This document shows positions 3,839 through 60,945 of a stretch of DNA of 64,000 nucleotides, in pieces. Source of the stretch: Geosiphon pyriformis uo1 (lineage: Eukaryota; Fungi; Glomeromycota); contig JAAOMT010000762.1 in assembly GCA_016748015.1 (NCBI GenBank), positions 671,401 to 735,400 of the forward strand, read 5' to 3'. The notes under the pieces are model-generated. The model made no database searches. It was not told the origin of the DNA and saw only the letters and a program-made list of their open reading frames with translations. The first letter of the stretch is position 1. Each line of letters begins with the position of its first letter. The position numbers and the translations under genes were made by a program.

Positions 3839-4369
3839 TTTAATATTTAAATAATAATATATGTTAATTAATAATAAAAATTATAAAAATAATTTCATGC
3901 TAATTAATAATTTAAATTTTTATTAGTAATCTAATTTTCTTTTTAAAACTAAATTTTATTAAAGTTTAAATACTATCTGTAATTAATCAGATAATAAACC
4001 AAAATTATTAAAAAAATTTAGTTTAAAAATTGTTAAATTTTTAGTTTTGTAAATTTTTTAATATATTGAATCTTTAAAAATTGTAAAATTGAATATTGTA
4101 AAATATTTTTACAAATGTAAAATAGATTATAGAATTTAAAAGTTGCTTTAATTGTGTAATAAGTATTTATTAGTCTGGATATTGTCTTAAATTTATTGTA
4201 AATTTGTTTTTAAATAGCTTTAGATATAAGATTTGTTGTTTTAAGTTTCAGTATTTTTTGTAAAACATTTTTCTAATAAAAAAATATTTATAAATTAAAA
4301 AGTATTTATTGTTTTGTTTGTTAAAATACTGTTAAAGTTTTTGTTAAATTGTAATATTTGGTAAAATAT

Positions 4370-5940
4370 TGTTATAAGTTAGAGTAACAAGCTAATAGAT
4401 AATAAAAAAAACAAAATTATAAGATAATAAAAATAATTAAAAAGAAAATTACAATAAAAGAGCAAATTAAATAAGTAAGAATTCAATATACTTAATTAAT
4501 TTTATAAAAATCACAATTGTAAATCTTTTCTGGAAATTTAAAAATAGAATATAGTCCATAATTGTTAACAAAATAATACTACTGCTATTATTTTATGTCT
4601 TAACTTGGCAATTCTTAGAATCAATAACAGTGTTACCAGTAGATTTTTAGCTATTAAATAACATGAAATTACTCTTATAATTCTCATTATTAATTAGCAC
4701 ATATTAATATTATTTTAAATTATTATTTATTATTTAATTAATAATCTGATTTGTACAATAGAAATTAGGATAATTAAATTATACAATACTTCGAACTATA
4801 TAACATTTAAGAATTTGCTGAAATTTGTAGAAATTTGCCAAAATAATAAATAGTTCACTGAAATAACTTGTAGTTTGTCAAAATATATTTTTAATTTGTC
4901 AAAATTATAGCAAAGAAAAAAGTTCAAGTTCAAAGATTAGTACTATAACAAGTTGTATAAAAAAAGAGCTTCTTTTTTCAAAAAAATATATCTTACTTTA
5001 GATTTATATTTTTTAGAATCATCTTTAAGAAATAAATATAAAAATATTCAAAAAACCAATCTTTTAATTATTTTTACTTGAAATTCTCCAAAACTCAACT
5101 AACATTTTAAAATTGATTAGCTACCAATTTTAGTGATCTATTAGTAACTTCAGGCCTAAATAGAAAACGATTCCCTTAACGAAATTCTATTTCTTTAATA
5201 TTTTTTTTATTTTTTTTTTATTTTCTTATTAGAATTATTAAGATAGCCTACAGACAAGATTCTTATAGAAAAGTTGACTTTCACAGCAAAGTAACTACAC
5301 ATTTTTAATAAGCTTTTAGACAAGCAATTTCTGAGAAAGAGTTGACTTTTACTACAAAGTAACTACATTAAATAACTAGTACAGAATTGATTATTTCACT
5401 TATAAGCTCAGCAGTTCAAATTATAGAAGATAATTTGAAGATAAATTCAGTTATCAGAGGTTTACTAGCTTCCAAAAAATGTGAATTAACAGCAAACAAA
5501 AATTAACAACATTTAAGAAAAGAGACCAAAAACCTCCAATAACAACAGATATTGTTGTGTTTTTTAATTATTTCTTTATTTAATAAATTACAAAAGCAAA
5601 TAATTACTTCTTAAGCTAATTTTAATAATACAAATTAAGAAAAAAAAAATTAAGATATGTAAATACCAACAAGTAATTTTTTATTCCAAGATATTCAGAT
5701 ACTTGAAAATAAAGAAAAAAAAATAAACAATATAAAAAAAAGTAATTAATAATGAGTTTTATTTGATTACTTTAATCATGTTCTTTTACAGTTAAGAGAC
5801 TTATTGCTTATATAATTATTAAAAATAGTCAACAACCAAATCAGTAACCAAGTCAATGATTAAATTAATAATTAGGTTAATAATCAAATTATTGATTAGA
5901 TTAATAGTTAAGTTATTATCTAAAAATAAACAGTAAATTT
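4370..5940 (-). repeat. Decayed A-family LTR, interrupted by a B-family solo LTR
   Basis: tgttataagttagagtaacaagctaat at 4370 matches the reverse complement of the A LTR 3' end; 5660-5930 matches the reverse complement of 10545-10830. The right boundary is uncertain. Confidence 0.7.
4631..5544 (+). repeat. Solo LTR, B-family
   Basis: TGTTACCAG...AATAACA termini, collinear with 16004-16979; 4-bp TSD ACAG at 4627-4630 and 5545-5548. Confidence 0.92.
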
Positions 5941-8304
5941 TTTTTTAAGATTTGTTTTAAGAGTTTTTATAAGTAAATTTTAAAATAACTTCTTATGTTT
6001 TTTTTATAAAGATAATAATTTCATGTTTTTGTTATTAAAATTGTAACAAATTTTTGTTTGAGTGTAATTAATATGTTTTTTAATAATAATTATAAATAAT
6101 TAAGAAGTATTTTTAAAATTAATATTAATTTTTGGAATATATATTAAATGTTTTTGAGAATTATTGTAAAAGCTAATTAAATATAAAAAAAATAAAATTA
6201 TTTTTGTTTTGTTTTTATTTTAGTGTATTTTAATTTATTTTTGTAAAATTGTTTTTAATAAGTATAAAACAAATATAAAAAATATTAATATTTAGATTAG
6301 AAGTTATTTAATAACAATTATTAATTCTAAATTTCAAAAAATATTTTTAGAGTTAATAAAAAGAATTATATACCAATTTATAAAATTAAAAATTCGAAAT
6401 TGGTTTAAAATAGTAGTGTTTAAGTTTGTTATTATGTACAACTTTTTTTAAAACTTTATTATCAAGTTTTAACTTATATAATCTATTTTTTAAAAATTTG
6501 TAAATGTAAAATAATTCATCTTATTTATGATTAAATTTTTTATTTCATTGTTTTTTAGTTATAATTCTGTATAAAAAAACTTTATTTTTAACTTTAAATT
6601 TATTGATAACAAATAGTAGTTTATTGTTATAATATTTTTTTATTGAACTTAAAAGTATTTTATATAAATAGCTACAATTTGTTATATTTTTTTCAGTATG
6701 CTTAAAAATATATAAGCTCTTTTTTGCAATGTTTCTTTAAAGTTTTTTTTGTAATTAATTGAACTGAATAAGACTTTACTATAAAATTAATTAGTAATAT
6801 TGCTGTTTTTTTATAGATTAAATTAAATAATATATGTTTTATTGTATTTTGTTTTAATATTCTATATATTATACTAAAAAAATAAAGATATTTTATTCTT
6901 ATTTAAAATTAATTAAAACTTTGGTTAATAATTTGTAAAGTATTCTGTTAAAATATTTTATAAATTTATTTGTTTATAAATAATAAAACAAAGATAAAAG
7001 TTTTTAACATTGAATTATTCACAAATTTTTTGTATTAAGTTGTTTACAAAATGTATTTTTTGATTATATAAAAATTTAATTGGACATTTGTGTTAATAAA
7101 TAATGTTTTTATAAATAAAATTTGTTATTAATTTTGTGTTTATTTGTTAAATTGTTCTTGTTTTGGCTATTTTATTAAATAATCTATTACAACTACAATA
7201 TATTAGTTTTTTTTTTAAATTTTAATAGGTAATAGTCTAACTAAATTAATATCAACTTAATTAAAAAATTGTTTAACTTTGATTAAATTCAAGAATTTTA
7301 TAAGACATTTTTCTTTTTTTTAATAACTATTACAATATTTTTTATTTAAAGCCAAAAATAATGTTTTAATATTTTTTGAATTGTGTTATTTTTTTAAAAT
7401 GTATTAATAAAAAATTTAAATAACTGTTATATAAAATTATTTTTTTTTATGTTTCTGAATTACTTTGAATAAGTTGTTTAAATTTTTGTAATTTTAATAG
7501 TAAATAATATTATTGTGTATAAAATATGGTTTTGCTTGATATTATAATTGTTGTTTTTTACTTGAAGACTAAGATTTTAATATTATAAGTATTTTTAAGT
7601 ATTGTTTAAGATTATTGTAATTTTCGAATTTATTGTTGTTTGTTTTATCAGTTTTTGTTTGTTGAATTGATTGAATTTCAGGTTTTAATTTTGCTTTATT
7701 CTAAAAAGACAATTAATATTTGTGTGTAATTTTTTTGGTTTGTAATATATAATATATTGGTAATTTGCAAAAAATTTGGTCTATTAAATTTGTTTAGTAT
7801 TTAATTTTAAATTTTTATTATGAAGTTATTTGAACTCAATATTATTAATAATAATATCGAATTTTTTAAGCTTGAAATATAAATTAAAGTAATAAAAAGC
7901 CCAATTATAACTGCTGTTTTCAACTTAGTAACAAAATATTTTTTTTTGCTGAAGATAAAATAACACTAAAAGCTATATATAAAACATTTATAGCTAGTTA
8001 AAATTTTTTGTTAAAATCAAAGTAATCTAAAATTAAAGCTATTATTAGCTTTTTTTTAAAAACATTAAAGATATTTTATTTTTTTGCTGTTTATTTGTAT
8101 TTGATGTTTTTGTTAATTAAATAGTTGAGAAGTTTGACAATTTCAGAAAATTTTTTGATAAATTTTTAATAGTAAAATATTAATTCTGTAAATTTTTTTA
8201 ATTTGGTATTTCAAAAAACTTTGAAATTTTTAACAATACTGATTTTTTTTAAATTAAGTTTAACTTTTTTTTTATTGACAATGTAATCTAAAAAACCAAA
8301 TTAG

Positions 8305-10469: not shown

Positions 10470-11184
10470 TGTTATGGTTGGAACTTATACTTCTTATTAA
10501 TTATTACATGTATTAGCCATTGATATCACATAAATTAGCTACTCTATTTTTAGAAAATAATCATTAACCTAATCATTGACTTGATCATTAACCTAATCAT
10601 TAACCTGATCATTAATCTAATTATTGACCAAGTTGTTGACCTGATTATTGACCACTTTTGACAACTATATAAGTAATGAATCTCTTAGCTGTAGAAATGC
10701 ATGAAGAAATTAAGGAAATAAAATAAATAAAATAACAACTTTCATCTCAATTTTTCTCTTATTGCTAATTTCTCTTTCCCTACTTTCAAGTATCTGAATA
10801 TCTTAAAGATAAAAGATTACTTGTTGGTTATTTTTTACCCTTTTTCTGAAACGTGTAATTGCAGCATTTGAAGATTATTGAATAAAACGTGACTGAAGAG
10901 TACATCTGATACCTAATATTGAATTCTAAGAGCACCAATATGAGGCATAGAATTGTACCAGGTATGATCATTTGTTGACAATATGGACTATTCCTCTATC
11001 TTCAGATTTCCCAGTTATCCTTGAAAAGAATAGCAACTGAGATATTTTATGAGACTGATTTTACACATTGAATTCATACTTATTCAATTTGCTCTTTGAA
11101 ATTGAATTCTCTTTGATTCTTTTCATCACCCTACAATCCTGTTTTCTCTTGCTATCCATTAGCTTGTTATTCCAATTCATAACA
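10470..11184 (+). repeat. 5' LTR of element A
   Basis: TGTTA...TAACA termini; direct repeat of 27429-28107; 12-bp tandem array at 10558-10655, TATA-like tatataa ~10667, aataaa ~10881. Confidence 0.95.
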
Positions 11185-11236: not shown

Positions 11237-14200
11237 ATGAATGATTATTTATATTTGCCACAACAATCAGAAGAACACTTTGAAGCACACAACAAAAACG
11301 ATCTAGACTTTATTGAACTCAATTCTTTGCCCTCCTGCTTGATTTGCTTCCCCATTAAAGATCAATCCAGTAGACAATTCTAAGATTTTTGGAACTGGTT
11401 TCTGAACAAGCATTCAGCTGAAACTTATACAGCCTATACAACTTATTACTTTGATCAAGCTTATTTTGAAGACAACTTTGAAGAAAAAAACAACAGCATC
11501 AATTAACTTTTATACTCCACAACCTTTGAACAACAGCCCTCTGATTTCGAATATCTGAATCATCAAATCCACATTTGGATTGCTGCCCATCAAGCAACTG
11601 AAACTCCCTTTGAAACAGAAGAAGAAAGCTACTAAACTGCTCCTGTTTTTGACTTTTTATCAAGTGAATTAAACTTATCTATACAAACAGTTATCCCTGA
11701 ACCAATAGCTAATAACCCTATGCAAGCAAACATTCTGGCCACCCTCCAAGGTATACAAACTGCTCTAGGAAGAAGAAACAATATCCTACTACCACTATTT
11801 AGAGGTGATACACAAGATCCAATTGAATGGTTGAATGATTTTAAAAGAGCAGCTACTACAAATCAGTATGATAATGAATACAAGTTTCAAATTGTTGGTG
11901 GCTATTTTCAAGGCTTTCCTATTACTTGGTTCTTACAAGAAACTGATGCTAGTGCTTACCAAAAAATTATTAGATGGATACCAACAAATGCTGAAGAAGA
12001 AAATATCTCTTTCACAATCCAGTTTGAAACTAAATTTAGAACTTCCATCTTAATCTCAAAATGGCATATAAAATTAGAAAGACGAACTCAAGACTTTGGT
12101 GAAGTTGTGACTGAATATGCTAAAGCAATTAAAAAGCTAATCAAACATATAGACTCTGGCAGAAACTGGACTGAAGAACAAAAGATTCACTCCTTTACAA
12201 AAGGATTGAGAACTGATCTATTATATGCTCTCTGGTCTCTCTTGGCTCTCAAAAACAATCCCACAATGGATATGACCATTGAATTAGCTCAAAAAATTAA
12301 AGATAACCAAAGAATGCATTTGGGATTCACACTTTCAGTCTTTGTTCCTGCTTCTATTTTGGCTCTTGCTTCCCAAATGGCTGCTACCTCTTTTACTGTT
12401 CAGACTCAAGATCCCAATGAACAATTAATAGATAGACTTACAGCCAATCTTGCTTGGCTATTGGAACCCTTAGTCCAAACAGTCAGAGAAAATTAACAAC
12501 CACAAAGACTTAGATTTGAGCCATGCTTTAATCAGCCCTAACAGTCCTCTTATCAAAGACAGCAAAATTATGGCCCACCTGTGTGCTACTGTTGTGGATT
12601 AACTGGACACTTCTCAAGAGATTGCAACAATCCTCCCTTGCCCTCTCCAGTTTCCAGAAACAATAACAATCAAAACAACAGATCTATCAACAACAATACT
12701 CCTAATCAAAGATCTAATCATGCCAACATCAATTTTTTTGGAAAAGATCTCCTAGTAGAAGCCACAGTTTATCAGCCTTTAAACTAGTAGGTGCACCTCC
12801 AAAGGGTGAGAGTGCAAGCCAAACAGAAAAAAACCTCTTTTTTGCTTTTAACTTAACTGATGATGATCATAACATAGACAAATTAGCAATCAATATCTTA
12901 AAATCAACCAAAAAGAAGAAAAAAGCCAAGATTGATTTCATATTGGATCTCAATAAAGCTTCCACATCAACAGCTGATAACAATAAACCACTAAAAGCCA
13001 AAGTTTTCAAGAATTCTTCAAAGTTGGAACCTCCAGAAATAGTGCAAAAATCTGGTCTTTATTCCATTGTCAAAAATCTCATAGAAACTCCTGCACACAT
13101 TACCTTTGGCCAGTTAATAACTTATCCCCAATTCAGAAAAGACCTTTGCAAATCTTTGATTCTTAAGAAAAAACACCAAAAACCAACAAGTGTCCAAACC
13201 AAGCTGAACTTGCTGACAACAGCAATATTGCTCCTCTTATTTGTAAGACCCAAATGGCTGGTTACTTTATTGATCTAATTTTGGACAGTGGATTATCTGT
13301 TAGTGTCATTGCCAAATACTTCTTAAAAGCAATTGGCAGAAAGATTGATGAACCATCCACACGATTGATGACCAACATACATGGTGACAAGAAAAAAGAT
13401 TTGAACATAGCCAAAGCTGTTTCTGTCCAAATCAATGGCATTAGTATTGAAACTAACATGGAAGTATCTGAAGCAAAAGAATACACCATAATAGTTGACA
13501 ATAAATGGCTCAAGAAAGCAAAAGCCTTGCTTGATTATGAACTCTGTGAACTGACCATCAGATATGGTAAGAAACCTATTGTAGTTAAGTGTTGCCATTG
13601 GACAACTCCTCTAGTACCCAAACAAAGCCAAAAAGAAGAGCAATCAGATGAGTCAGATGATGAAGAAAGTGATAAAAAAAATGAACAAGAAGAATAAAAA
13701 GAAACTGCTGAACTTGCCTACACTATCTTTACTAGCAACAGCAAACCATTAGATAATGTCAAAGCAGATAAAAAAGGAATCATGGTAAATGGCAAGCTAA
13801 TCTGCTGGCTCTATTATGATATCCTTAGAAAAATCTTTGACCAAAAGTCTGGCAAGAAAGCCAAATACAGTTATTGGTGGCATAACTCTTGTGCCAGATG
13901 CTGGTACAATAAATTTTTGTATTCTCCCAGTAATGAATGCAAATCTTGCCTGATCTATTACAAAGATTGGGAACCAATCAGTTTGATACCCAGGGAAGAA
14001 ATAAAAGAAGTATAGAAGTCCTTTGAGAATGAACCACCTGAGATCCAATCACTTGTTGTAGAACAAAGAAAACCTTCTCCAGAAGAAAAAAAAGTAGATA
14101 TTGAAAACTTATTGGCTAGAAACAGTCCAGTTATCTCAAAAAAAGGTAATACCTCTGGACAAACCCATGTAATACAACACACCATCACAACCAAAGAAAC

Positions 14201-15470
14201 TTGCTCCATACATTTAAAGCTGTATTAATCCAATTGTTGTAATAATGAGTTTATCAAGAAAGAGATAAACAAAATGAAAGATCTTGGATTCATACAAAAA
14301 ACCAAGAGTGAATGGACTTTCCCAGTTGTAGTGGTATCTAAGAAAGGTGGAACTCTACACTTTTGTGTTGACTACCACCAATTAAATGCTATTATTATAA
14401 GAGACATGTACCTATTCCCCAAAATTGATGCAATACTAGACAAATTCAATAGTGCTGTTTTCTTTTCAATTATTGACTTAACTGCTGGATTCTGGCAAGT
14501 AGAGATGGATCCAGAAAGCAGAAAAAAAACTGTCTTTATCATCAAGTATGGCATCTATAAATTCACAATTATGCTTTTTAGTCTCACAAATGCTCCTCTC
14601 ACTTTTCAACGCTTAATGAACAAGATGTTTGAATCAGTAAAAAAAAACTTTGTTCTAGTTTACTTGGATGATATAATAGTATACTCAAAAACCTGGGATA
14701 AACACCTTGAACATTTGCAAAAGGTTTTTGACCTGCTCAGAAATGCTGGCCTTAAAATCAACCCAATCAAATCTTTCTTTGAACACCAATCCACCCAGTT
14801 CTTTGGTTATCTTATTACAAAAGATGGAATCTTCTCTGATCCAGCCAAAGTTAAAAAAGTTCAAAACATTAGACAATCAATGAATGTTCCTAAACTATGC
14901 TCTTTTCTTGGTTTGGCTTCTTACTATTGCAAATTCATTAAAGATTTCTCCAAAATTGCGCTTTCTCTCAACCAGCTATTCAGAAAAAATGTTAATTACC
15001 ACTGGGGTACACACCAGCAAAAAGCCTTTGAAATCCTAAAGAAAAAACTTGTTACTAAACCAATCTTTAAGCAATCTGATCTGGACCAATCTTTTATCCT
15101 TCACATTGATACATCTGGTTATGGACTTGGTACTGTACTTTCACAAAAAGATGAAGATAGCAGAAAACATGCTATTATATATGCCAGTAGATCTCTCATA
15201 CTAGTGGAAAAGAACTATTCAGTAACTAAACAAGAATGTTTAGTAATAGTTTGGACTACTAACTATTGGAACCAATATTTTCTTGGTGCCAAATTCCTGG
15301 TAATAACAGATCATCAAGTCTTGGTTTGGCTGCGCAATAAAAAAAATCTGGAACATAAATGGATAACTCACTGGATACTTCATCTGGATGAATTCAACTA
15401 TAATATTCAACACCACAAAGGAGCTAATCATCAAAACACCAACATTTTCTCTAAACTTACCATCCAATAA
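11237..15470 (+). pseudogene. gag-pol: Element A Gag-protease-RT-RNase H polyprotein (stops and frameshifts)
   Basis: Capsid (FRGDTQDPIEWL), CCHC knuckle CYCCGLTGHFSRDC, protease LILDSG, RT FCVDY/DLTAGFWQ/YLDD, RNase H DTSGYGLG/TDH. Confidence 0.95.
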
Positions 15471-16003
15471 CAGTACAATCTTTTAAACCAAACCAACTTA
15501 ATTATTAATAACTCCCTCATAAACAAATACAATAATGGACTTAGACAACTATTCTGTCTTAATGGAATTTTTGGATAAAGGACAATATTCACCAGACTAC
15601 ACTCGACAACAAAGAGAACATTTATGCAAACAATCAAATTTCTATTTGATCTACCAGAACCAGTTATACAAAAGAAACAGAAAAGATCTTGACTGCCTCC
15701 AAAAAGTCATAAGATTTGAAGAAAGAGAAATTGTAATCTACAATATGTATACTGATCCATTAGCTGGACATTTTGGAAAAACAAAAACAATCCAGAAAAC
15801 TTTAGCTCATTACTATTGGCCTATCTTAGAAAAAGACATTGCTGAATACATCAAAATCTGTGACATTTGCCAAAAAAGAGGCAAACCCAATTGCAAAAAA
15901 GATATCCATTCAATCTTTGTTGGTTAACTATTTGACAGAATTGGTATAAATATTGTTGGACCTTTAATAATAACTCCTAATAGCAACAGATACATTATTA
16001 CAG

Positions 16004-16979
16004 TGTTACCAGTGGAATTTTAACTATTAATTAGCATGAAATTATCTTCATAATTTTTATTATTAAGTAGCATATTATTATTATTTCGATTATCACTTAT
16101 TAATTAGCCAAATTATCAAATATTATTACTTAATCAATAATCCGATTTGTACTATAGAAATTAAGATAATCAAATTACACAATACCTTGAACCATTTAAT
16201 ATAGTCAAAATTTGCCGAAATTAATGAAAAAATTGCTGAAATAATTAATAATTCATAGAAATAACTTATAGTTTGCCGAAATATATCTTTAGTTCATCCA
16301 AATTGTAGAAAAAAGAAAAGTGTAAGTTCAAAGACTAATACTACAACAAGTTGTATAAAAAAAGAGCTTTTCTCTTCAAGAAAATGTATCCTTCTCATAT
16401 CTTACCATAGTATTTTACTTTGAATATCTTAATTGAAACAAATCACTTTTTTTTACAAAACCAAATAAAAATTAAAAATATTTGAAAACCAAATCCCTAA
16501 AATTATTACACTTGAAATTCTCTTAAAACACAACTAACATTTTAAAATTGATTAGTTATCAATTTCAATAAGCTGTTAGTGACTCCAGGCCTGAATAGAA
16601 AACGTTTTCCTTGATAAAATTCTATTTCTTTTATATTTCTTTTATTTTTATTTATTTATTTTATTGCAATCATTAAAGTAGCCTACAGACGAGATTCCTG
16701 TAGAAGAGTTGACTTTTACAGTAAAGTAATTACACATTTTTAGTAAGCTTCTAAATGAGCAATTCCTGGGAAAGAATTGACATTTACTACAATATAACTA
16801 CATAAAGTAACTGGCAAGAAATTGGCCATTCCATTCATAAGCCCAGCAGTTCAAATTATAGGAGATAATTTGAAGATAAATTCAGTTATTGGAGGTTCAA
16901 CTACTTATAAAAAACGTGAATTTACAACAAACAGACATTAACAACATTTAGGAAAAGAGACCAAAAACCTCTGGTAACA
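16004..16979 (+). repeat. 5' LTR of element B
   Basis: TGTTACCAG...CTGGTAACA inverted termini; direct repeat of 24943-25912. Confidence 0.96.
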
Positions 16980-16981
16980 TT

Positions 16982-17000
16982 TGGTGCTCTCCCATGGAAT
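16982..17000 (+). promoter_or_regulatory. Primer-binding site of B (TGGTGCTCTCCCATGGAAT)
   Basis: TGG starts 2 nt after the LTR; geometry matches the complement of a tRNA 3' end; differs from the A/C PBS. Confidence 0.8.
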
Positions 17001-17023
17001 AATACAGCAACAACAAATTCAAA

Positions 17024-20000
17024 GTGGTGACCACACTAGACATAGCAATTCTAGAGTATTATCAGTCAATTTACACCCACTGCAAACAAAGATTCAACAT
17101 CCCAGACGGAATTAAAGTTGTCAAGAAATCAGTATACCAATACATTGAAAACTGTATCAACAATTATCTTTTTAGAAACTACAACATTTCAGAAGTGAAA
17201 AGCAACCTCTACAATAATTTAGTGCACTATTCACAATTAGAAACAGAAAACCTGAACAGTGAAACACTTGCTACCTACTTTTAAGAACTTAATTTTAACA
17301 TTATTGAGTATTGTGAAAAAAAATACTCAGTACAGTTCAAATACTCTTTTGACTTTAAATCAGAAACTGAATCAAGCAACAAAGGCAAACAAAAAATAAA
17401 ACAATACTCAAAAACCACTCCAAACACTCCAATACTACCAAAGACAACTGCCAAACACTTGCAAACACCTAAACAAGAAACCAGTGTCAAATTACCACTT
17501 TCTATTATACCATTTCCAATTTCACTTATTCAACCACAAACACTAAGTTCACTACTTAACCATTTCTTCAGACCAGAAGACTTTCAGTTACTTAGGAATC
17601 CTATTCAATAGCAGGAACCAATATCAACAAGTACCAATATCATTGATTACTTACAGGAAATCGAAAGTAATTCTTCAGAAAACTTGGAAAGCAAAGAAAC
17701 TAAATCTGAACAAGAAGAAACTATAGAAAACAAAGAAGAAATGGCAACTGCTTATATTGCAAAGATTTCAGAATTTACTGGAGAAGATAATGATACCAGT
17801 CCTCAAGAATGGCTTGACAAAGTTCAAAAAGCAAAAGATGCAAATGGGTGGAATGCAGCAAGAATGCTCAAAGCAATCCCATACTTTCTCTAAAGAACTG
17901 CAGGAGAATGGTTTGAAAACTTAGAAGAACCATTTAAAGATTGGCAAGCATTCAAAAATACTTTTCTACAACAATTTACTGACAAAAACACCTCTATTAC
18001 TCTCAGAAACTGCTTTCATAATATCAAGCAAGAAATATCTAAAACTGTTATGACCTATTTTGGAAGATTCAACAAACTTCTCAGACGAATTTGACAATTG
18101 GAAACCAATAACTACTATTCTAATACTCAGATTTTGAACCAGTTTATAGCAGAGTTAAAAGATAAACTAATTAAAAAAGTCCACTCACATGCTCCAGCAG
18201 ACTTAGCAACTGCCATTAGACATACAAAGAGCTATGAAATGGCAATGAAAGAAGCAAATTACACCAAGCTTGTAAATCTTGCAATTGGAAAAACCAGCTC
18301 AGCAGCTAAAGAGAAAATAGACCAACTCACAAAGAAAGTTGAAAGCTATTTTACAAACCAACAACAACAGTAGTAACAACCACAAAGATATCAACCCCCA
18401 CAACAATGCAATTAAAACAACTTTGGATTACCATTTAACAACCAACTTCAAAATTGTCATTATTGTAGAATTTCAGGATATTGGAAATGAGATTGCAGGA
18501 AATTACAAAGAGACCAACAAAACAGGAGTAATCAATGTTACTCTTCACTACAACAATCTTATTACCAACCTCCACCACCAACTTATTACTCACCAAGACC
18601 ACAAAACTAAAACAATTACTATCAACCAGCTTTACAGCCAATGCAGCAACAATATTAGCAACCTTTACCAATTCAGCAATATCAGACACCACCCATTCAA
18701 CAATATCAAGTACCAGCCAGAAGATTGGTTCAACATGACCAATTCACACCCCAAAATCAATTTCAGAATAACAACAACAGAATCAATCTAAATAACCAGT
18801 TGGTTCTTCGAAATTCTGGTCAGCAAAGACCCAATTATTATCATACTCAACCCAGTTATCTTACAATGCCTGAAGGATCGAATTTTCAACAACCTGCACT
18901 TTCTGAAGGTAAAGCTGCAGCACCAAGACAAAATCCTTCCAACAATACAATCCCATCAGCCCAAATTGTTCAAAATGCCAACCTCTCAGATATATTTCCA
19001 TTCGAATTTGAAGCAAATGAATCACCATTCTTGCTCAGTAATGCAGCAGCTAATGAACAAAAAACTATTACTGCCATGTATACTGAAGCTACAGTAGAAG
19101 AAAAACCCATCTGACTAATTCTAAACAGTAGATTAGCTGGTAGTATTATCATCTACCAATTAATGCAACAGCTTTAAAAAACTGTTGACAGACCAGCCCA
19201 AACTGTAATTGTTACAGCAGATGGTATGAAAAAGACACCAGTAGGAGAAATTGACAATTTCCCATTTACCATTGATGAAATCACCATTTCAGTCAAAGTT
19301 TTAGTCATGAATGCACCCCAATACCAAGCTTTGGTCAGAAATGATTGGCTTCTTAAGGCCAATGCAAACTTAGATTGAGAAATTCAAGAACTAAAAATCT
19401 CATACCAAGAACAATACACCATAGTATCTGCTACTTGTAGTATTTTCAACAAACAATCAGAAAAAGCCCTAGTATTTGAATTTGAAGAGAAGAAGGAAAT
19501 GCCACTTACTGAAACCTACATGGCTCTTGGATTAACATCCAATTGGGCTGAGAAAACAGAACAAGAGATTTTTAAAGAATCAAGAGGATGGAAGAAAGTT
19601 AGATATTCTACTTCAGAACCACAAAAACAACCATCTTATATTCCACTTAAATGCAAAGATTGCAACAAGAAACTTTCATCAATGAGAGCATGTATTTCTC
19701 CAGAAGAGAAATATGAAACTCATACCTGCTACTTTTGCAAAGCATACCATAAAAAATGATTTGGATATCCTAAAAGGAGTGGAAAATGGAACAACACTTC
19801 TTGTCTTACATGTGGAAATATGCTACCAGAAGAATGCAACTGAATTAATGTTGCAATGAAAGGAGAAGTATGTGATCAGACCTGTCAATATGCTCTATCA
19901 ATTTCGGAAAAAGTCAGAAAAAAAGCATCATTTAATGCAATATACAACAGTGCTCTCAATAAACTCTACTACTACTCTCATAATGCTGAAATGATTTTTG

Positions 20001-22648
20001 ACTTAGCAATGACATTAATCAATAGAGCCACTCAAGAAGATGTCTGCCAAATGAAGGAAACTGAATACATTGAATATACTATGGAATTAGCTGGATTTGA
20101 TTATAAAAATGAAGTAGAAACCTACCACCAAATTGCAAGCCACACTTATTCAACCCAAGAAGCTCAAATTTAATAATTAGAACAAATGAACATTCAATTG
20201 TGTAAAGAATGTATCATGCTTTGTGATGACAAATAATGTCCAGAATGCTATGCTTTTAGTATTTTCTTACCCAATGAAAATGACCAGAAAGAAATCGAAT
20301 TTGAGAAACCTGAAACAAAGAAAAAAATCACAACAACACCAATCTATCTTACTCAAAACCAGCCTGCTATACAACTCAAATACTTTGATAATAATAGGCA
20401 AGTAATAAAACCAAAAAAAGGCTACGAAATTAATGCAGGATATAACCTCAGATATTCAGAAAAAGATACTTTGGTTCTCCAACCAAAATCTTTAACAAAA
20501 ATCAATCTTAAAATTGCTCTTGAAATTCCACCTGGAGCAATGGTTCAAATTGCATCCAGATTATTGTTGGCAAGCAAAGGAATCAATATTAGAGGAGGAG
20601 TTATAGATGCAGGATACATTGAAGATATTACCATCCTGTTGCAAAATGAAACAGACAAACCATTTAAGATTGAACATGCTGAAAAAATTGCTCAAGCAAT
20701 TTACCTACCCTTAATCAATATTTCGGGTTTACAATCAGTTAACAACAGAGAACAATTGGGAAAAAGTAAAAGAGAAATGCAAAATTTTGGTTCAACTAGA
20801 CAATTTACAGTTCCAGTAAACATAGCTTTTAATACACAAAATGAATCTTACCAGATTTTTCAACTTCCCCAACCAATTACTATTTCACCTTTTGGAGAAT
20901 ATCACGAAATTTACACTTGCTTAAAACTCACCACTACACAACAAATCTTTAAATCCAATAAACAAATTTGTTTGAAGCATGAAATCTCAATTCCAAACGT
21001 TTATATTCCCAAAGAAATAAAAAAATTTTGAGTTACATTCTACAACCCCAATAATTACCCTATTGTTTTATTAAACAAATTAGAGATTGGAATCATACAC
21101 AGCAATATTTTTCAAAATGAAAACTCTCAAATTGTCTCTAATTTCATCGAAATTGTAAGGCACACTCTATTCCCAAATCCAAATATCAGTCTCATTACTG
21201 AAAACTACCACCTTTTGGAAGAAAAACTCTCTCAAATCAATATGGGTTCCTTAGAACCTCAACAACAAAGACAATTGAAACAATTGATAGTTGAATTTGC
21301 AGATATATTTGCAAAAGACAACAATGACCTGGGAAAAATGGATATTGTTTAACATCAGATCTATACAGAAGATGCTCTACCAAAATGTCAACAAGCTTAC
21401 AGAGTGCCATCTGCCAGCCACCAATTCATTAGAGAAGAAGTTCAGAGAATGCTCAATAACGAATTGATTCAACCATCAAGAAATCCTTGGGCCTTACCAG
21501 TAGTCTTTGTCAAAAAAAAAAATGGAAAAATCAGATTTTGTGTTGACTATTGCCAATTGAACAGTATGACAATTGGAGATGTCTACTCTCTTCCAAGAAT
21601 TGATGACATGCTAGATGCTTTAGGAAAAGCCAAGTTCTTCTCAACTTTGGACTTGGAAAGTGAATACTGGCAAGTCGAAATAGACCCAAAAGACTGACCC
21701 AAAACAGCATTTACCACTCAGGAAGAAAACTATGAGTTCAATGTTATGCCTTTTGGACTCTGCAATGCACCAGCAACATTCCAGCAACTCATAAATGTTG
21801 TATATGAAGGACTCTTGTGGCAATCAGTAGTTGTCTATCTTGATAACATTGATGTATACTCACCAAGCTTTGAAGTCCATCTCATTCACTTATAAGAAGT
21901 TTTTCAACGATTACAGAAAGCAGGATTAAAGTTAAACATTAAGAAATGTCACTTTGGAAAAACAAGCTTAATCTTTCTTGGACACATTGTAAGCAAAGAT
22001 GAAGTCAAACCAAACTCTGTAACAATCAGTGCTGTCAAAAACTTTCAAACTCCCAAAAATACCACAGAGCTACAAGGATTTGTAGAATTAGCCTTCTACT
22101 ATTGGAAATTCATCAAAGGATTCTCAGAAATTGCCAAACCACTCAATTATCTTACCAACAAAAATGTGTCATACAAATGGGCAAAAGAACAACAGAAAGC
22201 TTTTGAAACTCTCAAAACAAGATTAACAACAGCCCCAGTTCTTGCTTATTCAGACTTCAACAAATGGTTCCAACTAGCCACTAATGCTTTACATATAGCA
22301 TTTGGTGCCATCCTATTACAATTGGATGAAAATGGCCAGGAACAAGTTATTGCCTATGTCAGTAGAACACTCAAGCCAACAGAACTCAAATATGACTTAA
22401 CTGAATTGGAAGCTGCTAGGGTTATTTGGGCTCTTAAACATTTTCAACAATATTTGAAGAATGAAAAAGAATTTGACATCATAACTGACAAAATTTGTCT
22501 CAAATGACTCAATAAAAAGAAAACTGAACAAAGTGCCAAACAGTCACAATAGAATAACTTCTTAGCAGACTACAAATATATTGTACACCACAAACCAGGA
22601 AAACTATACACTAATGTTAACAGCCTCTCAAAAATAAGACAATATTAA
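17024..22648 (+). pseudogene. gag-pol: Element B single-frame Gag-PR-Cys-rich-dUTPase-RT-RNase H polyprotein with many nonsense mutations
   Basis: ORF fragments at 17024, 17684, 18098, 18725, 19499, 19856, 20471, 21404 and 22166 share one frame. Capsid FTGEDNDTSPQEWL, decayed CCHC knuckle, protease, RT RFCVDY/LPRIDD, RNase H. Confidence 0.94.
20402..20797 (+). pseudogene. dut: dUTPase domain within element B pol
   Basis: All five trimeric dUTPase motifs, in decayed form: AGYNL, SRLLLA, GGVIDAGY, EKIAQAI, REMQNFGST. Confidence 0.92.
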
Positions 22649-22715
22649 TACTAACATCAACACCAACAAAACACCAACAAACTTAACAGCAGAACAAACA
22701 ACAAAATCAACAACA

Positions 22716-24100
22716 ATGGATCCAGAAAACTACAACAACATCAAAAACTATTTAGAGACTCTCACCATGCCAGAAAATTGGTCTCCAAGTGAAAAACATC
22801 GATTACAACACCAATCCAAACAATATTTTATACACCACAACAAAATTTATTACAAAAATCATAAAAACCCAAACCAACCACTCAGATTAGTACAGGAAAA
22901 TAAAAAAGAAACAATTCTATACAACATGTACACAGATTTTTCTTCAGCACACTTGGAAAGAGATAGAACAATTCAAAGAACTCTTGAACATTATTTTTGG
23001 CCTCACATGCAAAAAGACATTTGACAATATGTAGAATCTTGTGATAGTTGTCAAAAAAAAGGAGGAACTCACTCCACAGAACTTTAAATCCAATCAAAGT
23101 TGAACAATCTTTTAACAGAGTTGGAATTGATTTAATCGGACCATTATCTATTACAATCCAAGAAAATTACTATATTGCAATAGCAGTAGATTATTTTACC
23201 AAATGGCCTGAAGCCAGAGCCATCCAAAGAGCAAATGCAAAATCAGTAGCAAATTTCATCTATGAAGACATTATTTGTAGACATAGATGCCCAATTGAAC
23301 TTTTATCTGATCAAGGAACACATTTTGTAAACAACTTGATACAAGAAATTTGTGAACAGTTTAATGTCAAAAGACTTCTATCATTACCTTATTACCCTCA
23401 AACAAATGGACTTGTAGAACGTTTCAACAGAACATTGTGTGAATCTTTAGCTAAAGTCTCAACAGATTTTGAGCAAAAATGGGATATCTTTATTCCATCA
23501 GTGTTACTAGCATACAGAACACTAAAACAAGATACTATGAAACACATACCATTTGATCTTACTTATGGAAGGACAGCAACACTACCAATTAATTTCACAG
23601 TAGAAACATACTTAGTACAACCAATCAATGAAAAAAACTTTCAAGAAACACTCCAAAGAAGGGCCTATACTCTTCTTAGTACACTGGAAGGAAAAAAAAG
23701 GATAGCAGCAACTTACATTAAACATTTCCAAGCTCAACAAAAAGAAAGACATAACAACAAATTACCACCCATTATCAACGAATTTAAAGTTAGAAATAAA
23801 GTTCTCTTACACAGAACTAAGGCTGAAAAACAATGGAGTGGAAAATTTAAAAACAAATGAGATGGACCATTTTATATCTACGAAATTCTAGGCAATGGAT
23901 TATACAAGTTAAGACTTAATAACAAAATACTAGCAAAAGTTGCACATAGAGACAAATTGAAACACTATCATTCCAGAAACAATCCTAAACCATTAATTCT
24001 ACAAATTGGTACACATTTCTTTTTAATTAATCCTGAAAATATTCCCCAAAATTTAGAACCAATAATCATAATAGAACAACAACCAAACTTGAATACTTAA
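22716..24100 (+). pseudogene. int: Element B integrase, separate ORF
   Basis: Own ATG (MDPENY); VGIDLIGP, VDYFTKWPEA, SDQGTHF, PQTNGLVERFN, DGPF; ends NLEPIIIIEQQPNLNT*; no chromodomain. Confidence 0.94.
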
Positions 24101-24263
24101 TTCAACATAATTTTACAACAATTTTTATATAACCCACAAAACATAAATCAAAAATAGTATAATTACAAAGAAATATTTAAAACCCAAAAACAAAAAAAAA
24201 CCCTATACCCAAAAATAATTTTCTTTATTCTTTTCAAACTTTGTTATTAATTAGTCATTTTAT

Positions 24264-24908
24264 CATGATTATTTCCCGAAATATTCAACAAATATCCCAA
24301 AAATTAATATTAACTTTGAAAACACTTTCTAACTTGTCTATAATGATTAATGGAAGTCAAATTAAATACATTCAGAAAAAAACCACAGCCCCAATAGCAA
24401 ATCATTCACAGAACTATCACCCCTATAGAAGAAAAACAAGAAGCCACTCTGAAAATAGGTTACCAAGACTTTTGAAGCAAGCACTAAAAGAAAATTTTTT
24501 AATTGCCCCTATTGATATTCCACAATACAACAAAAACTTCTACTACTTCTCAATAAACAGAACAATGAACACACTCCTATCTATAAATACTTTCACATTG
24601 GAAAGACATTTTATGAACAAAAACTGGAACTTGAAGCAACCAACATCACTCCTGAGACTGTACAAAAACAAATTCACAATGAATTTAAGACAGCAGCTGG
24701 ACCAACAAACACTTGCTACAAACTTAGAGCAGCTTTTAGACTCTATGATTTGTTTAACACTTGCAAAAATGTCCTACAAAATCCAATACTGCAACCAATG
24801 AAAGTTTAATACATTGGCAAACTCACAGAACTGAAATTTCAACAATTTTCAGACCAAATCACTTCAATTATTCTGGACTATTATTTTGATATCACAGATA
24901 GTGCTTGA
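24264..24908 (+). pseudogene. Element B ORF3, accessory protein of unknown function
   Basis: The frame containing 24582 reads YKYFHIGKTFY...KLRAAFRLYDLFNTCKNVL...YIGKLTELKFQQF, homologous to element C ORF3. The supplied 24241 ORF is a different frame over this part. Start uncertain. Confidence 0.7.
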
Positions 24909-24942
24909 ATTTCGATGGAGCTCAGTCTTGAGGAGGAGATTA

Positions 24943-25912
24943 TGTTACCAGTAGAATTTTAGCTATTAATTAGCATGAAATTATCTTCATAATTTTTATT
25001 ATTAAGTAGCATATTATTATCATTTCGATTATCACTTATTAATTAGCCAAATTATCAAATATTATTACTCAATCAATAACCCGATTTGTACTATAGAAAT
25101 TAAGATGATCAAATTACACAATACCCTGAACCATTTAATATAGTTAAAATTTGCCGAAATTAATGGAAAAATCACCGAAATAATCAATAATTTGTAGAAA
25201 TAACTTGTAGTTTGCCAAAATGTATCTTTAGTTCACTCAAATTGTAAAAAAAAGAAAAGTGCAAAGACTAATACTATAACAAGTTGTATAAAAGAAGAGC
25301 TTTTTTCTTTAAGAAAATGTATCCTTCCCATATCTTATCATAGTATCTTATTTTGGATATCTTAATTGAAACAAATCACTTTTTTTTACAAAACCAAATA
25401 AAAATTAAAAATATTTAAAAACTAAATCCCCAAAATTATTACACTTGAAATTCCCTCAAAACACAACTAACGTTTTGAAATTGATTAGCTACCAATTTCA
25501 ATAAGCTGTTAGTAACTCCAGGCCTGGATAGAAAACGTTTCTTTTGATAAAATTCTATTTCTTTTATATTTCTTTTATATTTCTTTTCTTTTCTTATTGC
25601 AATCATTAGGGTAGCCTACAGACGAGATTCCTGTAGAAGAGTTGACTTTCACAGTAAAGTAACTACAAATTTTTAGTGAGCTTCCAGACAAGCAATTCCT
25701 GGAAAAAAGTTGACATTTACTACAACATAACTACATAAAGTAACTGGCAAGGAATTGGTCATTCCACTCATAAGCCCAGCAGTTCAAATTATAGGAGATA
25801 ATTTGAAGATAAATTCAGTTATTGGAGGTTCAACTACTTATAGAAAACGTGAATTTACAACAAACAGACATTAACAACATTTAAGAAAAGAGACCAAAAA
25901 CCTCCAGTAACA
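24943..25912 (+). repeat. 3' LTR of element B
   Basis: Direct repeat of the 5' LTR, preceded by the PPT and followed by the TSD. Confidence 0.96.
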
Positions 25913-26802
25913 ACAGCTACCAACTATCTCACAAAGTGGGTAGAAGCAAGAGCCACTCTAGACCAAACAGCAGTCTCAATAACCAATTTTATTTATGAAG
26001 ATATTATTTGCCATTATGGCTGCCCCAAAAAACTTTTATCTGATAAAGGAAGAGCTTTTCTTAGTACACTGGTTGAAAAACTCTGCAAGAAAATAGAAAT
26101 ACATCATAAACTTTTCTCCTCTTACCACCCTTAAACAAATAACCTAGTAGAATGTTTCAATAAAACACTATGTGAAACCTTAACCAAAACCAGTAAAGAA
26201 ACAAACCTATAGGACAAAGTACTGCTTTCAGCCTTGTTCACTTATAAAACTGTGAATCATGACATAACAAGTTATAAACCTTTTTACCTGCTCTATAGAA
26301 AAATGGCAACTTTACCAATAGAAACTGATATTAAGACAATACTCTTTAAAGAAATCACAATAGAGAATTACAAAGACATTTTGCAAAGAAAACTTGGTAC
26401 CATTCTTAACTCCTTGATAAAAGCACAAATAATTGCTTTTGAAAAGATAAAACAGTTTCAAGAAAAGCTTAAGAAAAAAAAAATCTATAAAACACTTTCT
26501 TTAAGTATTGGTAATTTGGTACTAGAATACCATTCAGACAGAGACAATATTTATGGTGATAAATTTTCTAGCCAGTGGAAAGGACTTTTTATAGTCAACA
26601 AAGTTTTGAACAATGGTTTTTATATTCTTCAAGATTAATCCAGAACAATCTTTAATGATTGTCCTGTTCATGGTACACGACTTAAGAAATATCATAAATA
26701 ACCTGATTGGTTGCCTGTTGTAGTAATACTGACTTAAATGATCAGCAAAAATCAAGTATAAATAAATACACCATTCCCAAAACAGAGGTATCTTCAATCA
26801 AC

Positions 26803-27459
26803 ATGAACAATTATTTTCTGAATCAAAACATTCAAAATGCCTTTTATACGCTTTATGAGTATTGGATCAAAAACTATTCAAATGCTACTCTGACTATTGG
26901 AAAACAAACCATCATAACTGATAATAATAAAACACATACTGTTATTAGACCAAAGAAAACTACTACTAAAAAAGAAAAAATTGGTAGCAAAATAGATAAG
27001 TATCTGTTAGAAAGCATAACAGCAATAATACTTGTATCTTCTATCACAATCAGAAAAACAATTAAAAAAATCTTGCTTATAGACAAAAACTTGTCATATG
27101 GAAGACAACTAGAACTCTATAGTCACTTTGGTGAAATCATAGAAGACATAAAGCTCATAAAGAAAACAACTTCTGAAATACAAGTGGAAATTTTGAGCAT
27201 TATACAATTAGATGTCCCAAAAGTTTTGACTATTGCAAGAAGAACCAAAATTTTTATACAAAGATTTGGTCTTTTGGATACAAAACTCATTTTGCCTCAA
27301 GTGCTATACACCTTATCCACAAAAAACTTCAACAAACTAGTTAGCTTTGAGTTAGATAAAACCCTTCTAATAGATTACACCATAAATAGCTTGATTTTGT
27401 CAGAGTTTAATCTTTTTAGAAAGGATAATATTACAGTTAGAACTTATACTTCTTATTAA
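26803..27459 (+). CDS. Element A ORF3, accessory protein of unknown function (still open, ~218 aa from this ATG)
   Basis: Uninterrupted ORF between integrase and the 3' LTR; pattern LYSHFG...ARRTKIFIQRFG...LYTLSTKNFNKL parallels ORF3 of B and C. Confidence 0.7.
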   Translation: MNNYFLNQNIQNAFYTLYEYWIKNYSNATLTIGKQTIITDNNKTHTVIRPKKTTTKKEKIGSKIDKYLLESITAIILVSSITIRKTIKKILLIDKNLSYGRQLELYSHFGEIIEDIKLIKKTTSEIQVEILSIIQLDVPKVLTIARRTKIFIQRFGLLDTKLILPQVLYTLSTKNFNKLVSFELDKTLLIDYTINSLILSEFNLFRKDNITVRTYTSY

Positions 27460-28107
27460 TTATTACATGTATTAGCCACTAATGTTACATAAATTAGCCA
27501 CTCTATTTTTAGAAAATGATTATTAACCTAATCATTGACCTGATCATTAACCTAATCATTGACCTGATTATTAACCACTTTTGACAACTATATAAGCAAT
27601 GAATCTCTTAGCTATAGAAATACATAAAGAAATCAAGGAAATAAAATAAATAAAATAACAACTTTCATCTTAATCTCTCTCTTATTGCTAATTTTCTTTT
27701 CCCTACTTTCAAGTATCTGAACATCTTAAAGATAAAAGATTACTTGTTGGTTATTTTCTACCCTTTTTCTAAAACATGTAATTGCAGCATTTAAAAATTA
27801 TTGAATAAAACATGACTGAAGAGTACATCTGATACCTGATATTGAATTCTAAGAGCACCAACGTGAGGCATAAAATTGTCCTAGGCATGATCATTTGTTG
27901 ACAGTATGGACTATCCCTCTACTTTCAGATTCCCCAGTTATCCTTGAAAAAAATAGCGACTAAGATATTTTATGAGACTGATCTTACACATTGAATCCAT
28001 ACTTATTTAATTCACTCTTTGAAGTTGAATTCCCTTTAATTCCTTTTATCACCCTACAATTTTGTTCTTCCTTGCTATCCATTAGCTTGTTACTCCAACT
28101 TGTAACA
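27429..28107 (+). repeat. 3' LTR of element A
   Basis: Direct repeat of 10470-11184 with fewer 12-bp units; start mutated to TATTAC; purine tract at 27417-27428. Confidence 0.94.
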
Positions 28108-39226: not shown

Positions 39227-39431
39227 TGTCATTCTGATTGGCCTGAGTGGCTGGTTATATGTAGAAAATGCATGATTCACACCTAGTTTAGATCATTTGT
39301 ATGATATATAGTATTAGGTAGCATTTGGACTTCACTCAATAAATGTAAAAAAAAAAAAGTACATATGTATATTCTTACATAAATTTAGATTAGTTAATAG
39401 CCAATAATAAAATCAGCATACTATATAGCAT

Positions 39432-43010: not shown

Positions 43011-44054
43011 TAGTTTTTTTGATTATTTTTTTTAAAGAGATAGTATTAAAAACACCAGATATAAAAATTATAGAAGAAAAAACCAGCTTGTTAACTAGTC
43101 TATTATTAAAAACTTTTGGGCTTTTGAAAAAAATAAAAACAATACTAAAACTAATTCAAGTATGTTTTTTTAAGAGAATTTTAACTGTTTTTACAACAAA
43201 AAAATTTTTCTGATTAAAACTTTGTAAAATATCAAAAAAAAGTACTAGTTACAGCTTTTTTATTTTTTGCTTTAGTTATAGTTATAAAATTAAGAAAACA
43301 AAAAGTTACAGAAATTTAAATTATAAAAATTAGATATATAAATACCAAAAAAAATAAGAAAAAAAAGCTCAAAACATTCTTAGCATAAACTTTTCAAAAA
43401 AATCATAAAATTTTTATAACAACTATTTAAATTAATTTAATAATTTACAATATTAATAGAAATTACAATTAATAAAAAAAATATAATATAAAAATACAAG
43501 CAAAAAAAGAGTGAATAAAAATTCAATTAAAATTAAACATTTTTAATTCTATAAAAAATTAAGAAAAAAAAAATATGTGTTTCTAAACAATAAAAAAAAT
43601 AAAAAAAAGCTTTAAATAACTTAATTATAGAATCTAATACTAAAAATAGATTCTTAAAATTTTCAAAATATGGAAAAAAAAACTTTTATTAATATACTGG
43701 TTTTTTAAAATTGGTAAAAAATTAAACTTATAAATACTATATATAAAAAATAATAAATAAATATTTAATAAAAAAGTTCTTAAATAAATAGAAAAATTTG
43801 TCAGAAAAAATAATTTAATACTCTACTATAAAGCAATATATTAACTATATTCAGTATTTAAGTATTTTTTAACTATATAATTAAACAATTTATTAAAGAC
43901 TATTATAATTAATAATATTAGACAAATAACAAATTTTTAGTTTAAAAATTTATAAAAAACAATATTTAACATAATAATTAAACATTATACCAAAAAAACA
44001 ATATTTAAAATATATATAATTTTGTAAAAACTCAATTTTAAAAGAAAAAAATAT

Positions 44055-45057
44055 TATTATTTAAATAAAAAATAATTAGAAATTCATTAAAAAAAACAAA
44101 AAAACTACATAATAATATGAAAAAAATATAATAATACAAGAAAACACAAAATAATACAAGATAATACAGAATAATATAAAATAATACAAAATAATATAAA
44201 ATAATTTAAGATAATACAAGATAATACACAATAATATAAAATAACACAAAATAATTAATAATAACATAAAATAACTAATTATAATATAAAAAAACAAAAC
44301 AATAGCTAGCAATAACAAGCAATTAAAAGCAATTTTATAGAACTAAAAAATATGTATAAAAATAAGTAATTTTAACAAATAAAATAATACAAACCAGACC
44401 AAAATTAGTTTAAATATTTTATATTTCTTTTTTTTATCTTTTATATTCCAAATTTATCAAATAAAATATTATTGTTTAAATTCACAAATTCATGATCTTA
44501 ATACTTTAATTATTAAAATTTGATTAATTGTTTTTGCTTATTTTTGTTTTAAACCAGATATTATTAATATAAATATTTTTAAAACTTTAATAATTTAAAT
44601 TAATTTTTTTTGATTATAGTAATTAACATGATATTAATTTTTATTTTCTTTATATTTTTATTTTTTTATTTTTTTTTGTAAAGTAATAATATTGAAAATT
44701 GATTGTTTAAAAATAAATTTTGTGATAACTTGGTAAAAATAAGAAGCTTTTTTTAAGTTTAAATATTAATTTTATTTTGTTAATTTATCAAAAAAACAAA
44801 AAAACAATACTAAATCTTAGTAATTATGCTTACTAACTTAAAAAAAACACAATTACAATAATATAACCAAAGAAATAACTTCTTTGTATCTTATAATAAA
44901 AAAGCTTAATAAGTAAAACTTTAAACAAAAAAACTTTTAAAGACTAATAATTGTCTTTTATACACAAACAATTTTAGTTGAAAATTAATCTGTTTTTAAT
45001 ATCAAATTTATGAACACCAAACATTATAACCATATTATATCAAGTTTATTCATAATA
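44055..45057 (+). repeat. 3' LTR of relic D
   Basis: Collinear with 8305-9382; preceded by ctcaattttaaaagaaaaaaata (decayed C-type PPT) and followed by CTAG. Confidence 0.82.
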
Positions 45058-45553
45058 CTAGTTTTTTTAAAATAATATTTTTTAATGTTTAATTTTAATT
45101 TTGCTTTTTATAATTATAAAAAAACTTTTTATAAATAAATTAAATAAGCTTTAAATAAAAACAAATAAATATTAATATTATTAAGATAAATAACTACTAA
45201 TTGCTAAAAAAGTTTAATATAAATAATATTTATAAGTTTTTAGAATATTGTTAATATATTATATAATTCAAAAGATATTACATTAAATTCATAATTTTTT
45301 TTGAATAATTTTTGAAATTTATTCTAATTTGTTAATATCTATTTTTTAAATTTAATGTTGAAAAATATTTTGATTTTTTAAAAGTATTTAACATATAATT
45401 AATTTGAAGTAATAAGTAAGTATCTTTAATTATAATATTATTTAGTTATTAATAAACAATACAAAAGCAGATTTTTTATTTTTTTTGATAAAAATTATTA
45501 TTAAAATCCTTAAACTTATTAATAATTAGATAAGTTTATTATTAAATATATAT
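45058..45553 (-). pseudogene. RT remnant of relic E; continues at 62416-62487 beyond LINE-2
   Basis: Reverse complement aligns with element B RT (21450-21965); 62418-62485 aligns with 21390-21455. Confidence 0.72.

Positions 45554-60891: not shown

Positions 60892-60945
<54 letters not shown>

Follow-up and report, generated by a model that had tools for sequence, protein, structure and literature searches.

Nested elements and their gene order

The window analyzed here (64,000 nucleotides of Geosiphon pyriformis contig JAAOMT010000762.1) is AT-rich eukaryotic DNA occupied by nested LTR retrotransposons and LINE-like remnants. LTR elements make up 41.2% of the G. pyriformis genome, according to the accessible part of PMC11952901. 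The element proteins in the window match G. pyriformis. The elements are Gypsy LTR retrotransposons, having gag, protease, RT, RNase H, and integrase in the Ty3/Gypsy order between LTRs, together with a primer-binding site (PBS), a PPT, and a target duplication. Elements A, B, and C (Table 1) share 39% (A-B), 41% (A-C), and 49% (B-C) identity across RT-RNase H, and 37%, 36%, and 56%, respectively, across integrase. Target duplications are 4 bp long. Each PBS (11185-11210 in A, 16980-16997 in B, and 60505-60488 in C) starts with TGGTGCTC, which we take to resemble the 3' end of elongator methionine tRNA.

The paired LTRs differ at 65 of 679 sites in A, 72 of 970 in B, and 100 of 1082 in C, and nearly all differences are transitions (227 of 237 in total, 96%). 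A, B, and C are all dead copies. Decay of the LTRs is strong and deamination-like, and goes beyond CpG alone. Family-specific tandem arrays lie upstream of TATA-like sites, with 12-bp units in the A LTRs and 10-bp units in the C and D LTRs; Tandem Repeats Finder returned no U3 array in the B LTR. For the LTR pairs of A, B, and C, the contexts in whichever copy carried cytosine were CpA (104), CpT (64), CpG (32), and CpC (26; n = 226).

Two C-type LTRs, one at 8289-9406 and the other at 44039-45077, are 35.7 kb apart and 17% diverged. They may mark where element D begins and ends, with A, B, and the first LINE nested in between. The two LINE-like elements (34535-39366 on the plus strand and 45548-50379 on the minus strand) have opposite orientations and 67% identity over 4.9 kb, and give an RT match and a cellular-type RNase H match. 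A 114-bp unit is repeated three times in tandem at 39432-39773, after the first of them.

Table 1. Positions of element features within the window.
Feature	Position	Strand	Remarks
Element A	10470-28107	+	target duplication CTAT
A 5' LTR	10470..11184	+	12-bp tandem array 10558-10629; TATA-like site at LTR position 197; 4-bp duplication CTAT
A gag-protease-RT-RNase H region	11636..15470	+	stop after RNase H
A integrase, separate +1-frame ORF	15535..26701	+	own ATG at 15535; 65 nt past RNase H stop (junction 15470-15535); interrupted by element B
A ORF3	26803..27459	+	open, 218 aa; 101 nt past integrase stop; last 31 nt within 3' LTR
A 3' LTR	27429..28107	+	12-bp array 27517-27576
Element B	16004-25912	+	inserted within A integrase; target duplication ACAG
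B 5' LTR	16004..16979	+	target duplication ACAG
B dUTPase domain	20237..21031	+	between protease and RT; PF00692, E 5e-17
B integrase, separate +1-frame ORF	22716..24100	+	own ATG; 68 nt past RNase H stop (junction 22648-22716)
B ORF3	24265..24962	+	frameshift near 24519; in-frame stops near 24807 and at 24906-24908
B 3' LTR	24943..25912	+	
Element C	51360-61599	-	
C 5' LTR	60506..61599	-	array 61353-61531
C integrase, separate +1-frame ORF	53276..54643	-	11 nt from RNase H stop (junction 54654-54643); H2C2, rve, SH3; no chromodomain match
C ORF3	52456..53195	-	frameshift in G run near 52970, one in-frame stop; ends just before PPT
C 3' LTR	51360..52441	-	10-bp-unit array 52220-52392
D ORF3 relic, C family	43390..44006	+	iE 1.2e-35
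D 3' LTR, C type	44039..45077	+	10-bp array, 21 units
E ORF3 relic, C-terminal part, B family	3982..4394	-	
E ORF3 relic, N-terminal part	5931..6161	-	E 1e-8; split off by ~1.5 kb of nested LTR sequence

In the usual Ty3/Gypsy layout, integrase is the C-terminal part of Pol. The window elements differ in that integrase is an ORF of its own in all three families. A reading of the bare sequence that preceded this analysis (the sequence-only reading) had proposed a separate int gene, and this is borne out in three of three families by a stop after RNase H followed by a +1-frame integrase with its own start. The start in C (position 54643) matches those of A and B, but reads ATA in the window copy. 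The split of integrase from Pol is a conserved layout, not decay. The same reading counted a dUTPase in the gene set, which holds for B and, by eye, for C; none was seen in the gag-protease-RT-RNase H region of A, where one 105-aa ORF was judged by reading alone. Between protease and dUTPase, C (~57250-57750, minus strand) and B (19600-20170, plus strand) have a cysteine-rich region with several CxxC pairs and only a weak LIM match (E 0.004), possibly an undescribed zinc-binding module.

The third open reading frame and its family

Downstream of integrase, each family carries a sense ORF (ORF3). The A copy is open, as had been read from the sequence, and belongs to a multicopy family of constant length. 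It differs from the family majority at 43 of 218 residues, 34 of which are within reach of one C>T or G>A change. For B and C, the ORFs start at 24265 and 53195, essentially as proposed (~24264 and 53195), but the window copies are broken, each by one frameshift and in-frame stops. Intact B-family ORF3s read through the PPT and ~20 nt into the 3' LTR; B ORF3 therefore extends to ~24962, beyond the premature stop at 24908 where it had been ended. A position between integrase and PPT, which had been claimed for every family, thus applies to C, whereas the ORF runs 31 nt into the 3' LTR in A and ~20 nt in B. Intact relatives encode 221-239 aa in the B family and 244 aa in the C family (P0006).

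ORF3 queries matched 130 of 651 candidates for A, 130 of 143 for B, and 46 of 68 for C. All matches listed for A (at least 120), B (at least 120), and C (46) are from G. pyriformis, with identities of up to ~90%. Relics D and E do exist, but not as separate families: D ORF3 has 49.5% identity to the C-family protein P0006 over residues 122-230, and E ORF3 has 45-54% identity to B-family proteins. As D belongs to the C family and E to the B family, there are three families, not five. Many G. pyriformis gene models (P0063, P0314, P0315, P0323, P0341, and others) fuse ORF3 to unrelated nested transposon pieces, and P0063 joins part of a B ORF3 to part of an A ORF3. Such models are annotation artefacts from nested insertions. 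ORF3 matters for annotation, because hundreds of 'hypothetical proteins' of G. pyriformis are this retrotransposon gene.

The ORF3 proteins of B and C are homologous. Their profiles align with a probability of 95.9% in hhalign (E 5.3e-9, 101 columns), their global score has a z of 18.8 against 40 column shuffles, and the C profile scores a median of 29 bits on 120 B proteins compared with -0.9 on reversed ones. Identity between them is 25-27%, versus 56% for integrase, so that ORF3 diverges faster. A profile search against 1.84 billion representatives returned 72 matches. Ten were looked up: eight are from G. pyriformis, additional ORF3 types among them, and two are metagenome proteins (P0317 and P0322) that align to B over their full length at 26-30% identity. 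The C-terminal peptide of these two is the one that B encodes across the PPT/LTR border, and from this peptide we infer that they sit at an LTR. No host gene was present among the 24 of 72 matches examined, and pattern or tblastn scans of phages, plasmids, and viral, metagenome, and prokaryotic contigs returned no relatives. Full-length ORF3 frames are retained across lineages at 23-37% identity. Judged by these comparisons, B, C, the further Geosiphon variants, and the two metagenome proteins are one undescribed family of ~220-245 aa.

Constraint was assessed at the protein level with two B subfamilies, comprising 22 and 15 full-length proteins (alignment A2). Between the subfamilies, majority residues are kept at 89 of 108 positions in residues 93-200 and at 53 of 92 in residues 1-92 (Fisher P = 1.6e-4). 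Within subfamilies, by comparison, decay is spread evenly along ORF3 (0.88-0.90). Among the between-subfamily differences, 47 of 63 have a non-negative BLOSUM62 score. Conservation of the core between subfamilies combined with even decay within them is the pattern expected from selection during active replication. At the level of protein sequence, then, the C-terminal core of ORF3 is under constraint.

The place of A ORF3 is less firm. The sequence-only reading had drawn one motif through A, B, and C, and had proposed profile-profile comparison as a check; the B/C part is homologous, but A is not significantly linked to B or C in any test, so the three-way motif is unconfirmed. Comparison by hhalign gave E 0.24 for A versus B and 0.25 for A versus C. 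Against the deeper B/C profile, the A profile, which is shallow (Neff 1.3), gave E 0.16 (z 0.2) in one comparison and E 0.28 in another. HMM scores of A versus B/C fall inside the shuffled range, BLAST found no match at E ≤ 1 between P0174 and eight family representatives, and no family A protein is among the 24 of 72 profile-search matches examined. All of this favors an independently acquired, unrelated accessory gene, such that two different genes share one slot, as do the distance of A from the other elements (RT 39-41% to B and C, the most distant of the three) and the absence of any dUTPase seen in A. Bdelloid rotifer elements have captured ORF3s independently and repeatedly, as described in the accessible text of PMC5408684. 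We give an unrelated origin real weight, if short of an even chance. Against it stands the likeness of A to B ORF3 in size, position, PPT/LTR overlap, and the order of predicted elements (a hairpin, then helices). The best alignment of A to the deeper profile, non-significant as it is (E 0.16), is collinear over 174 columns from the N-terminus, and sets the last motif of A in a different register from that previously read. Top HMM matches of A are in register (mean 1.5 bits versus -0.4 reversed), and the shallowness of the A profile also counts against unrelatedness. Common descent, with A ORF3 as a fast-diverged member of the B/C family, is probable on balance. The earlier view of a helical, non-Env accessory protein kept across families thus stands for B, C, and further lineages, in which the protein is small, soluble, and mostly helical, but not for the membership of A.

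Protein features and possible roles

ORF3 is basic: its pI is 8.8-9.7, a value raised in part by G>A decay that yields lysine, and nine of nine proteins have a basic cluster. It has no transmembrane stretch, as had been noted from the sequence (best 19-residue Kyte-Doolittle mean 0.44-1.47 in nine of nine proteins). Structure models of A and B rest on shallow alignments that predate the discovery of the distant relatives. Model quality is poor for A (mean pLDDT 39). For B (mean pLDDT 51), the model shows a hairpin near the N-terminus and a core of helices, and is confident only around residues 101-130, where the core helices reach pLDDT 82-89. In the predicted architecture, a helix and a beta-hairpin at the N-terminus lead through a basic linker to a core of three helices (B residues ~93-161). 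Foldseek with the B model found nothing at E ≤ 0.001 in PDB and viral libraries. VIA-align against 48,161 chains gave no Z ≥ 5 (best 4.4). For a model with pLDDT 51, these results are evidence neither of a new fold nor of a different one. A sequence search of the PDB returned a single unrelated row (E 0.07), and no family reaches its cut-off.

The closest domain lead is DUF1016_N (PF17761), the N-terminal domain of YhcG. In 11 of 104 B/C members, each of them from family B, it ranks above every other Pfam family (best E 0.0028). Its best score, 18.2 bits, lies below the Pfam cut-off of 32.8; it is absent from the C members scanned, from all 33 A members, and from all 11 more distant relatives. 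Ten PDC-S02 models of PADLOC match B residues ~90-160 in one register (best E 6.3e-5), mainly at profile positions ~27-110. The ten models represent YhcG (E. coli YhcG scores E 2e-131) and are not independent of one another; a CARF-HEPN model matches the same stretch equally well (21 of 104 members, best E 1.3e-5). The YhcG profile aligns to B without gaps over 57 columns, anchored by Y-x-x-I-G and R-x-Y-x-x-F, at E 0.18 (0.24 against the deeper profile), neither of which is significant. We suspect, with more doubt than confidence, that the B core could be related to the YhcG N-terminal domain. In the accessible text of PMC1189080, this domain is helical, has no defined function, and lies N-terminal to a predicted PD-(D/E)XK DNA nuclease. 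A literature search by listing returned nothing joining DUF1016 to ParB and nothing on the function of the DUF1016 N-terminal domain. ORF3 as a YhcG nuclease was rejected, as it has no C-terminal PD-(D/E)XK domain and ends at 220-245 aa.

Other leads are weaker. A likeness of the ORF3 motif to an HMG box was considered, but no Pfam or PDB sequence match supports it; in the structural comparison, one HMG row reached Z 3.6 (rmsd 3.2 over 60 residues), tied with unrelated helical rows. In Atlas, the B core falls close to unnamed clusters, mostly bacterial, at 0.93-0.94, with which it shares 143-156 features, and to DUF6192 at 0.90; these are leads only, and P0006 gave no usable match. In PHROGs, phrog_23683, which has no defined function and is not the YhcG family, was found in 9 of 27 members (best E 0.0019). 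An NCBIfam match to FtsQ in 12 of 27 members (E 0.003) was treated as noise.

Our leading, though tentative, reading is that ORF3 may be a nuclear, nucleic acid-binding regulator that acts on the LTR of its own element to sustain transcription. We place it ahead of the alternatives because ORF3 is small, basic, fast-evolving, and soluble, has a constrained helical core, and lies at the 3' end of the element. The ORF would be expressed from a subgenomic RNA or an internal promoter, and the protein would enter the nucleus by import, bind U3 repeats upstream of the TATA-like site, and there activate the LTR or protect it from silencing. The LTR arrays are natural candidate sites, with the qualification that B has no array and that host factors are equally possible binders. 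Contigs from sequencing runs contained transition-rich DNA variants only, with no usable splice joint. A precedent is GENE23 of the maize element Grande, a nuclear protein according to the available text of PMC7264820. An extended version, in which an early-diverging fungal lineage of LTR retrotransposons took up a helical DNA-binding domain of the YhcG type from bacteria and employs it to activate its own LTR specifically or to counter silencing, with co-divergence of the protein and the family-specific U3 repeats, within a complex-retrovirus-like set (a gag-pro-dut-RT-RNase H frame, a separate integrase, and a U3-overlapping third gene), would be a long shot.

Other roles can be weighed against regulation of the LTR. 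ORF3 might act on RNA instead, in the export, splicing, or translation of downstream cistrons, chiefly the separate integrase, in analogy to Rev or the caulimovirus translational transactivator. Integrase lies behind the RNase H stop, in the +1 frame and with its own start, in all three families, so a special route for its expression is needed; the basic character of ORF3 suits such a helper, as do a pyrimidine tract and AG preceding the ATG of B and a branch-like CTGAC and CAG preceding that of A. However, the C spacer has no pyrimidine tract, TATA-like words occur in the A and C spacers instead, no known RNA-binding family was matched among the Pfam matches listed, and a spliced or reinitiated integrase message requires no element-coded aid. 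We therefore regard an RNA helper as unlikely. An integrase or particle cofactor, for instance a targeting adaptor replacing the missing chromodomain, would explain why ORF3 is always downstream of the integrase gene, and would suit integrases that end in an SH3 module (SH3_Tf2-1 match in C only) without a chromodomain match. The faster divergence of ORF3 than of integrase also speaks for it. Yet there is no sequence sign of a chromatin-reader fold, and the slot beside int is the usual site of any extra ORF in the accessible text of PMC7264820; we consider this role decidedly unlikely.

The env position and sense orientation would fit an envelope-like infectivity protein, but no hydrophobic stretch exceeds 1.47 in nine of nine proteins and no Env family is among the Pfam matches listed, which largely refutes this reading and leaves it scarcely credible. 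ORF3 might finally lack a function, being either filler or a piece of host sequence carried along passively, as every window copy sits in a dead, hypermutated element. Region-specific constraint between the B subfamilies, retention of full-length frames at 23-37% identity, and the lack of a host gene in the 24 of 72 profile-search matches examined make this very improbable. Should ORF3 bind the LTR of its element, a fungal retrotransposon would encode its own regulator, several cognate ORF3/LTR pairs would be at hand for tests of specificity, and such binding could help to explain a burst despite heavy C>T decay.

Comparison with known systems

Retroviral Tas and Nef are likewise small accessory proteins of the 3' region, and the overlap of ORF3 with U3 resembles nef and the foamy bel region. 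The sequence-only reading had likened ORF3 to foamy virus Tas and VANDAL VANC; no such family is among the Pfam matches listed at E ≤ 1 (25 of 42 families in one scan), and no sequence similarity of ORF3 to GENE23, Tas, or Nef was found. GENE23 is also a small accessory protein in the 3' region and nuclear, but it is antisense (PMC7264820, accessible text). The likeness to the YhcG N-terminal domain (PF17761; PDC-S02) consists of repeated weak matches to the B core in one register; it is sub-threshold and confined to family B, and ORF3 differs from YhcG in having no nuclease domain. Chromoviruses have a chromodomain at the integrase C-terminus, whereas the scan of the window gave SH3_Tf2-1 in C only and nothing of the kind in the pieces of A and B that it covered; the integrase ends of A and B were judged by reading.

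The closest counterparts are other LTR retrotransposons. The aORF-3S or 'env-like' genes of plant and insect elements share the position and sense orientation of ORF3, occur in most copies of a family, and have no cellular homologue found, according to the accessible part of PMC7264820. ORF3 qualifies as such a gene: it reads in the sense direction, occupies the interval from pol to the 3' LTR, and is retained in many copies. Unlike aORF-3S, it is fungal, has no transmembrane stretch, overlaps the PPT and U3 (in A and B), and accompanies a separate integrase ORF. Bdelloid rotifer elements likewise bear a dUTPase and a non-Env ORF3, some of 210-230 aa; in the text available from PMC5408684, their ORF3s are Env, transmembrane, coiled-coil, GDSL esterase, or DEDDy exonuclease proteins, none of which is matched by the ORF3 described here.

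A literature search of listings and abstracts that included the accessible parts of 10.1101/2021.03.30.436303 and 10.64898/2026.05.21.726589, with most subscription papers, the G. pyriformis genome paper, and repeat libraries outside its range, returned no description of the ORF3 family or of its combination with a split integrase. The sequence-only reading had put forward an undescribed system. Because extra sense ORFs after pol are already in print, including in dUTPase-bearing elements (PMC7264820 and PMC5408684, as far as their accessible text goes), we regard the protein family as new but the layout as a known one, and not as an undescribed kind of system. The ORF3 genes form a real accessory family, hitherto undescribed, at a position known to hold such genes; membership is proven for B and C and unproven for A, and the function is putative. 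Relative to the known elements, two things are new: the family of ORF3 proteins, and its occurrence together with an integrase encoded in an ORF of its own.
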